Assembly: GCF_988243305.1 (NCBI RefSeq) | Contig: NZ_OZ547136.1 | Strand: one strand, 5' to 3' | Length of the DNA: 64,000 nucleotides | Shown here: positions 21,120 to 25,233 of the stretch, in pieces | Layout of the letters: the number at the start of each line of letters is the position of its first letter | Numbering within the stretch: position 1 is the stretch's first letter | Program-made: the position numbers and the translations under genes | The notes under the pieces: generated by a model | Told to the model about the DNA's origin: nothing | The model's database searches: none | Seen by the model: the letters and a program-made list of their open reading frames with translations, nothing else

Positions 21120-24010
<2,891 letters not shown>

Positions 24011-24018
24011 GTAACCGT

Positions 24019-24085
24019 GCCGGATGCGGCGTGAACGCCTTATCCGGCCTACAAGGCCCGATAAGCGTTGCGCATCGGGCAATCT
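24019..24085 (+). repeat. BIME / REP pair (GCCGGATGCGGCGTGAACGCCTTATCCGGCCTAC plus inverted partner)
   Basis: Canonical REP sequence and a second palindromic unit immediately after the ascB stop. Confidence 0.85.
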
Positions 24086-24107
24086 GGGGTTTGGCATCAG
24101 TCAAAAA

Positions 24108-24527
24108 TCAAAGAAACCATTCCGGCTTAACGCCAAATCGGGCTGAAAGTGCCTTAATGTGGGATATCGTCAGGGATCGTTGTCCAGATAAAATCTGACT
24201 GACCAGGGATTTAGAGCCGATTTCGTTCTTCAAATCCGCATAGGTCAGATTATGTTGATCAATCAGCGTACGAAGTAACGCCACGCCAACCGGCATTGCT
24301 GCAACGGCTTTGTCGAACTCTGCAAACTTTTCGTTATTGTTTTCATATTCTGCAATGCGGCTCGCCAGAAAGTCGATAAGTGGATTGGTGTCATCTTCTT
24401 CAATCAAATATTCGACCAGTTCCAGTGCTTCACGATAATCATCTTCTGAGTCACTGCCTCCCAGAAAGGGGACTGCATTGACCAGTTCTCTTGTTGCTTT
24501 AACAGCGCGTGCAGCATTAGCAGTCAT
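24108..24527 (-). CDS. HigA-family antitoxin-like protein (C-terminal XRE-type HTH)
   Basis: 162-aa ORF; likely start at MTANAARAVKATRELVNAVPFLGG (about 139 aa). Its layout parallels K-12 HigA/YgjM as I recall it (AVAPFLAG ... ALELV ... IGSKS.VS..LSG.R.LT..H...L..RFG). No HigB-sized partner fits upstream. Confidence 0.6.
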   Translation of the reverse strand: MTANAARAVKATRELVNAVPFLGGSDSEDDYREALELVEYLIEEDDTNPLIDFLASRIAEYENNNEKFAEFDKAVAAMPVGVALLRTLIDQHNLTYADLKNEIGSKSLVSQILSGQRSLTISHIKALSARFGVKPEWFL

Positions 24528-24762
24528 TCTTTGTTCTCTCTGTAGTAACGTGTCAGACGCCCACTTTTCTAAAATGCCAGGTTTGCTCGGCATCATAAGG
24601 CATGGTCAGGAGAGGTTTCAGCGCCCGCTTTTGCGCGTATTCGCTGTCACTCATTGGCAGATATTCGGTAAAGCTGGTGGCCTGTGCAGGCAGCACAAAG
24701 CAAAATAAAAAAGCGCACATCCCTGTTCTGATTTTCAATTCCCTGAATTCCTTACTGAAAAA

Positions 24763-25233
24763 CTACTCTTCTTCCACCGCTAGCTGCGCAAATCCACCGT
24801 TCCCTTCCCAGCCTTCCAGCCGTTGATAAACGGTTTCTACCGCGTCTTTAATCGGCTGGGTCATCGGGTAGTAAAAGCCGACGATATCCGGCTGGATGCC
24901 GAGGAAAATCACTTCGCCAATGTCTTCTTTTAACTGGTCGATAAGGTAGTTCAGCGGCATGTTATGGGTAGTCATCATAAACATCTCGGCGATGTCATCC
25001 GGGTCGATGATGCGGATCTCGCCGGGGTTTAGCCCCATATCCGTGGCGTCGACAATCAGCAGTCGCGTAGGGCGCAGTTCACGGATGGCGACGATGTCGT
25101 TTTCCGGTGCGCTACCGCCGTCAATCACCACCCAGTGACCTTTCGGCGCGGCGGCGCACTTTTCCGCCAGCAGCGGACCTGCGCCATCATCGCCCATCAT
25201 GCTATTGCCAACACAGAGTAAAACGTCAGTCAC
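24763..25233 (-). CDS. hycI: Hydrogenase 3 maturation endopeptidase HycI
   Basis: 156 aa recognised as HycI ([20 protein letters not shown]). Confidence 0.95.
   Translation of the reverse strand: MTDVLLCVGNSMMGDDGAGPLLAEKCAAAPKGHWVVIDGGSAPENDIVAIRELRPTRLLIVDATDMGLNPGEIRIIDPDDIAEMFMMTTHNMPLNYLIDQLKEDIGEVIFLGIQPDIVGFYYPMTQPIKDAVETVYQRLEGWEGNGGFAQLAVEEE

Follow-up and report, generated by a model that had tools for sequence, protein, structure and literature searches.

What is a gene for a HigA-like helix-turn-helix protein doing between ascB and hycI, with no toxin gene beside it? In the 64,000-nucleotide stretch of DNA analysed here (the window), the left flank of the locus is ascB (6-phospho-beta-glucosidase, 22586..24010, plus strand), an ORF that corresponds to a 1425-nt ascB in all matching E. 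coli records, and the right flank is hycI (hydrogenase 3 maturation peptidase, 24763..25233, minus strand), placed by ORF and annotation. On the ORF map of the window the two are 752 bp apart (24011-24762) and, as an earlier note made from the letters alone had described, the gap holds a REP/BIME pair (24019-24081) and a minus-strand helix-turn-helix gene (24108..24527). The window comes from E. coli or something very closely related to it: its best identity to any of the 5,426 complete E. coli genomes compared was 98.4% over 6 kb. Comparison with other alleles of the same site answers the question: the gene is what survives of a HigB/HigA pair, its antitoxin half, the toxin having been deleted.

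A HigA-family gene beside a native BIME

The minus-strand ORF contains both of the motifs quoted previously, ...NAVPFLGG... and ...IGSKSLVSQILSGQRSLTISHIKALSARFG..., and its 139-aa product (24108..24527, beginning MTANAARAV) is identical to RefSeq WP_000126294.1, labelled by PGAP ‘helix-turn-helix domain-containing protein’ or, in some records, ‘HigA family antitoxin’. A longer reading of the frame, as a 162-aa ORF (24108..24596), was rejected: its 23 extra codons cross the deletion junction described below, and it is annotated in no RefSeq record. Pfam HTH_3 matched the C-terminus (E=1.1e-8, residues 108-161 of the 162-aa ORF) and phmmer aligned query residues 9-138 with residues 8-136 of the K-12 HigA structure 5IFG_B (E=2.5e-35), in keeping with the HigA-family layout and C-terminal XRE-type domain originally proposed. 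The protein is predicted to consist of an N-terminal helical region of HigB-binding type followed by the XRE helix-turn-helix.

Judged by these alignments, the protein is a paralogue, at another locus, of K-12 HigA (YgjM). The K-12 HigB-HigA pair (YgjN-YgjM; 5IFG / 6KML) resembles the present one in having an antitoxin, 138-139 aa long, whose helical N-terminal region is followed by an XRE helix-turn-helix at the C-terminus, and which is preceded, in intact alleles of the present locus, by a 103-aa RelE-fold HigB gene with overlapping stop and start; it differs in lying at ygjN-ygjM rather than ascB-hycI, in being roughly half identical in sequence and in that the window has had its own toxin and operator deleted. 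The gene is, by descent, a member of the K-12-type HigA family, and the locus is a toxin-antitoxin (TA) pair no longer, because the window retains no more of higB than its last 10 codons. With the HigA of Proteus vulgaris Rts1 and Vibrio type (TIGR02607) the protein shares its name and the XRE helix-turn-helix fold, but it falls outside that equivalog: an NCBIfam search gave no family over cut-off, TIGR02607 antidote_HigA scoring 14.3 bits (E=0.028) against a cut-off of 47.7 bits.

Similarity to PD-lambda-2, an anti-phage system (Vassallo et al. 2022, PMC9519451), was also seen, HigB resembling PD-Lambda-2_A (E=1.4e-14) and HigA the N-terminal helix-turn-helix part of PD-Lambda-2_B (E=2.4e-14). 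PD-lambda-2, however, has a HigB-like gene, a fusion of a HigA helix-turn-helix with a peptidase and a third gene, whereas HigA of the window is 139 aa long, matches profile positions 9-115 of 402 and shows no peptidase domain in Pfam, and intact alleles of the present locus have no third gene. With the PADLOC similarity partial, and the peptidase fusion and third gene both absent, membership was rejected in favour of distant relationship.

The REP/BIME pair is made up of imperfect palindromes at 24019-24048/52 and 24054-24081, the one inverted relative to the other. This stretch (query positions 320-355) had matches at 37 places in the median E. coli genome, and in Rfam there were only sub-threshold matches to the REP-derived family naRNA4; the element is thus what a REP/BIME is defined to be, an inverted pair of imperfect palindromes of ~30-35 nt from a family dispersed in many intergenic copies. 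The same REPs and BIME are found in the K-12 locus (L005). They had been read as part of an insertion; because K-12 has the same BIME, it lies outside any insertion, and it is native to the site, not part of the higBA cassette. REP sequences are a known target of IS621, and in strain 2015C-3905 the REP/BIME position, between ascB and higA, is occupied by a transposase gene of IS621 (IS110 family; L029:333-1313).

The deleted toxin and the stump beside it

The pair is intact in strain SJ3 (L001), where the same site reads ascB, higA, higB (103 aa), a 247-aa hypothetical gene (hyp) and hycI. SJ3 HigB matched Pfam HigB_toxin (PF09907, 5e-22) and 5IFG_A (E=4.5e-21); an NCBIfam search with HigB returned nothing. 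The toxin gene comes first, its stop overlapping the higA start by 4 nt (ATGA). When the cognate HigB (WP_000547559.1) was compared by tblastn with the whole 64 kb, residues 93-103 alone were recovered (24527-24559, 10/11 identity), so that the lack of an obvious toxin partner, observed at first sight, holds for the entire window. Mapping to L001 and tblastn together delimit a higB remnant of the last 10 codons plus stop, at 24524..24556 on the minus strand.

BLAST breakpoints and comparison of the sequences show the window to equal L001 minus positions 1174-2205, a deletion of 1,032 bp. Window position 24556 corresponds to L001 position 1173, within higB (1141-1452), and the junction, GTGTCAG|ACGCCCAC, lies at 24556..24557. 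The loss comprises codons 1-93 of higB, codons 56-247 of hyp and, between them, the higBA promoter/operator; repeats were looked for, and the endpoints share at most 1 nt of microhomology. The locus has the marks of a degraded TA system, namely an intact pair at the same site in conspecific genomes, a mappable deletion and a toxin remnant. Position directly downstream of a HigB gene, a feature of the HigA family, is lacking in the window and found in 1,092 E. coli genomes. Of the options that the earlier note had entertained, that of an orphan antitoxin is the one upheld, with intact higBA at the same site elsewhere and a deletion junction mapped inside higB and hyp. Its roughly 750-bp insertion was correct as to size (752 bp) but is not a simple insertion; it is rather the residue of an island after the 1,032-bp deletion.

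The deletion also accounts for the small ORF upstream of higA (61 aa; 24553..24738, minus strand, TTG start, 24 nt beyond the hycI stop, with an ATG at 24720), with which an unusual pairing of the helix-turn-helix protein had been suggested. That this ORF encodes a novel small toxin would suit its situation, immediately upstream of higA on the same strand, ending 25 nt from it, in the toxin-first order typical of higBA. However, its translation aligns with residues 1-55 of hyp, a gene of 247-251 aa whose presence at full length is reflected in its C-terminal part, found in 1,461 of the 5,426 complete genomes, and its TGA stop was formed at the deletion junction. Moreover, its N-terminus (MKIRTGMCAFLFCFVLPAQA) is like an export signal, an NCBIfam search with it found no match, and among eight alleles of the window's type (state D, below) it has 4 synonymous and 8 non-synonymous variable sites, as fits neutral drift (P=0.30), the hydrophobic core of the window copy bearing three amino-acid changes private to it (FLFCFV vs FLLSLV). 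On this alignment the ORF is an N-terminal stump of hyp, not a toxin, and the small-toxin reading is very improbable.

Intact hyp lies directly downstream of hycI on the minus strand (L001:1626-2369) and may be co-transcribed with the hyc operon. It carries D-x-D-x-N/DG-like repeats, and no match was found to it in Pfam, NCBIfam or PADLOC; with an N-terminus resembling a signal peptide or export signal, its product looks like a secreted protein. Two allele classes of the gene occur, at >=95% and 80-90% DNA identity. Around the start of the stump and the 3′ end of hycI (24700-24799), the window has 13-14 differences per 100 bp from the nearest state-D alleles, and its hycI is 3 nt longer than theirs, as in K-12. 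The cluster of differences suggests a local recombination mosaic.

Six states of one polymorphic site

Comparison of the ascB-hycI junction across E. coli genomes, as the earlier note had advised, revealed six arrangements, with intact higBA at the same site. State A, as in SJ3, is ascB-BIME-higA-higB-hyp-hycI; state B (strain 103605) has higA and hyp, with higB deleted; state C (CH10268) has higA and higB, with hyp absent; state D (A37, SCU-485, ST131-type strains such as JJ1886, and the window) has higA and the 61-aa ORF; state E (K-12) is a gap without genes; and state F (strain 2D) is ascB-BIME-hyp-hycI, with hyp of 247-251 aa. The higBA cassette (L001 positions 719-1614, 896 bp), flanked by TCAG, separates the BIME from the hyp stop codon.

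In the K-12 derivative NEB5-alpha (L005), ascB and hycI are 158 bp apart with no annotated gene between them, so that the near adjacency of these genes in K-12, and the absence of higA there, were both correct. State F and K-12 share ...GGCATCAGAGCTGGTTCACCCCATCAAGAACATCCC, after which K-12 skips to the hyp start region, ACATCCCTGT, and its spacer keeps the hyp stop and last few codons fused to that start region (L005:700-760). K-12 has therefore lost hyp, consistent with a deletion of ~746 bp between ACATCCC repeats (compared with L028:690-730 and 1440-1480), and its adjacency of ascB and hycI is a derived state.

Across the 5,426 complete E. coli genomes, in which higA, higB, hyp and the junction were each counted separately, higA was present in 2,508, always as one chromosomal copy, and the deleted part of higB in 1,092; by these separate counts, toxin-less higA is commoner than the intact pair. 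The exact junction of the window was found in one piece in 834 genomes (~15%). All seven state-D loci fetched besides the window have the junction GTGTCAG|ACGC, and the loci sharing it include ST131-type genomes with a different left flank; a junction held in common, even beside a different left flank, points to one old deletion event. In the ST131-type genomes ascB is absent, and the place between hydN and higA is taken by a 145-aa hypothetical gene (WP_000536068.1; L007:1021-1458, L010:1-340). The asc operon has thus been replaced in this lineage, whereas its orphan higA allele is the same.

The left endpoints of the higB deletions in states B and D, apparently two independent events, are ~6 nt apart (L002:1165-1195 vs L001:1170-1180; window 24556), and both states keep ~29-35 nt upstream of the higA start. 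Such clustering may reflect selection for the ribosome-binding site of higA, or a local hotspot. Descent of the window allele from the higB-only deletion allele (L002) by a second deletion was considered; it would leave no trace, because the second deletion would erase the first junction, the left endpoints being 6 nt apart.

Beyond E. coli, in species-representative genomes of other Enterobacteriaceae, full higB abuts higA in 11/14 homologous loci (75-82% identity). The locus of Kluyvera georgiana has higA without higB, and that of Serratia sp. DD3 retains only HigB residues 79-103; toxin loss with retention of the antitoxin therefore recurs. Contigs 99% identical to E. coli higA/hyp in metagenome-assembled genomes labelled Collinsella sp. 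and Citrobacter sp. (L012, L023; GTDB) are probably binning contamination.

Taken together, the states would be accommodated by the following history. The ancestral order would have been ascB - BIME - hyp - hycI, persisting in strain 2D, into which an 896-bp higBA cassette, with its own promoter and palindromic operator, would have been inserted, with the BIME on one side and the 3′ end of hyp on the other. One deletion of 1,032 bp, in the line leading to the window, would then have taken away the promoter/operator, three quarters of hyp and all of higB but 33 nt at its end, leaving intact higA and a hyp stump of 55-61 codons. States A and C differ over 160 bp upstream of higB, sharing there only the operator core (L003:1421-1580), and in state C the palindrome is longer, with perfect 13-nt arms (ACGGGTGTTCACA-ATA-TGTAAACACCCGT; L003). 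Repeated entry of the higBA cassette into the site, or entry of a longer version, may account for this.

Probable maintenance, and possible expression and use, of the orphan

Toxin loss is harmless, and loss of the antitoxin first would be lethal; toxin-less alleles therefore accumulate. We have high confidence in reading the locus as a decayed chromosomal type II TA locus whose HigA would still be made, and kept as useful without its toxin. That higA is instead a functionless relic of the deletion, without useful expression and decaying in time, seems unlikely. The removal of both promoter and operator would fit such a relic, as would the clear decay of the neighbouring stump, and degraded TA loci are common (PMC7354431). 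Against it stands the pattern of variation in the gene itself. Of the variable sites of higA in eight state-D alleles, 13 are synonymous and 3 non-synonymous, a ratio that rejects neutrality (P=1.8e-6) and differs from that of the stump in the same alleles (Fisher's exact test, P=0.019). Each of the three non-synonymous changes is a singleton, so that, among these orphan alleles, the HigA protein varies by one residue or not at all despite pairwise synonymous divergence (pS) of up to 0.11, with pN <=0.006 and dN/dS close to 0. Moreover, higA is annotated as an intact CDS in 30/30 records sampled from the 2,508 genomes, and the same protein, WP_000126294.1, occurs in states A, B, C and D. Judged from the eight alleles, orphan higA appears to be maintained by purifying selection, although recombination with toxin-bearing alleles, in which HigA is essential, could be the source of part of its synonymous variation.

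In intact loci, a sigma-70-like site (TTGTGA-17-TATAGT) lies upstream of higB and overlaps the palindrome GTTCACAATATGTAAAC. The palindromic operator in its own promoter that characterises the HigA family has been deleted from the window, where this palindrome has 0 copies within 3 mismatches over the 64 kb. A weak sigma-70-like site, CTGAAA-18-TATGAT (24592..24621, minus strand; 9/12 match in a promoter scan), lies within the stump, 65 nt upstream of higA, and is a possible substitute promoter; it is also found inside the intact hyp of L001, and promoter-like sites in a promoter/terminator scan of the window were no more frequent than in shuffled sequence. From hycI to higA, the same scan found the minus strand free of terminator-like sites. 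Transcription of higA would probably start at the weak internal promoter or run through from hycI and the stump, and HigA would be translated from a ribosome-binding site kept in the surviving 29 nt of higB.

XRE-type antitoxins are DNA-binding repressors, and it might be supposed that HigA, its role against a toxin gone, now serves as a stand-alone XRE-family transcription factor for other genes. The intact helix-turn-helix domain, with zero non-synonymous variation in the orphan alleles, would agree with this, as would the present position of higA, which follows the hyc operon directly and on the same strand. Yet the cognate operator palindrome is absent from the window, and the N-terminal two thirds of the protein, which do not bind DNA and would be needless for DNA binding alone, are conserved as well. 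We regard this explanation as quite improbable, and a regulatory role as the less likely use of a retained HigA.

The most likely reason for retention would be the neutralisation of related HigB toxins carried on plasmids or other mobile DNA, that is, anti-addiction or immunity. Some 515 plasmids (Klebsiella, Enterobacter, Leclercia and others) carry higBA pairs at 60-80% protein identity to the present module, the top matches being ~78%, as for the HigB of NZ_CP074151.1. We propose, tentatively, that higA is a maintained stand-alone gene that could confer chromosomal immunity against the HigB of incoming Klebsiella/Enterobacter-type plasmids or of phage-defence cassettes. Were this so, it would affect the range of mobile elements able to addict or harm the host in the roughly one quarter of E. 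coli genomes that have higA without this higB (1,416/5,426, by separate counts), the 834 that share the junction including pandemic ST131.

Degraded type II TA loci with an orphan antitoxin are a well-known kind, and the present locus itself is undescribed: literature searches for the hycI and higB locus or for WP_000126294 found no paper, and those for orphan higA in E. coli or ST131 found general reviews only. To our knowledge, purifying selection on such orphan antitoxins is not usually documented. Like the degraded-TA orphans surveyed in the Klebsiella pneumoniae complex (PMC7354431), the gene of the window is an intact antitoxin ORF with its toxin deleted, a recognisable remnant and intact homologues on plasmids; unlike them, it belongs to an allele that is widespread, occurring in 834 genomes, and old, with synonymous divergence of up to 0.11. 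The role of orphan antitoxins as anti-addiction modules is an established hypothesis (PMC7354431), for which a natural and widespread orphan offers a convenient test case in clinical lineages such as ST131. What had seemed an unusual, partnerless helix-turn-helix insertion is routine decay of a TA module, and the six states of one polymorphic site document the asymmetry expected of such decay, toxin genes being lost while those for antitoxins are kept. A cognate or cross-reacting HigB may also be encoded outside the 64-kb window, for example by a K-12-type ygjN, the antitoxin of which is about half identical to HigA of the window.
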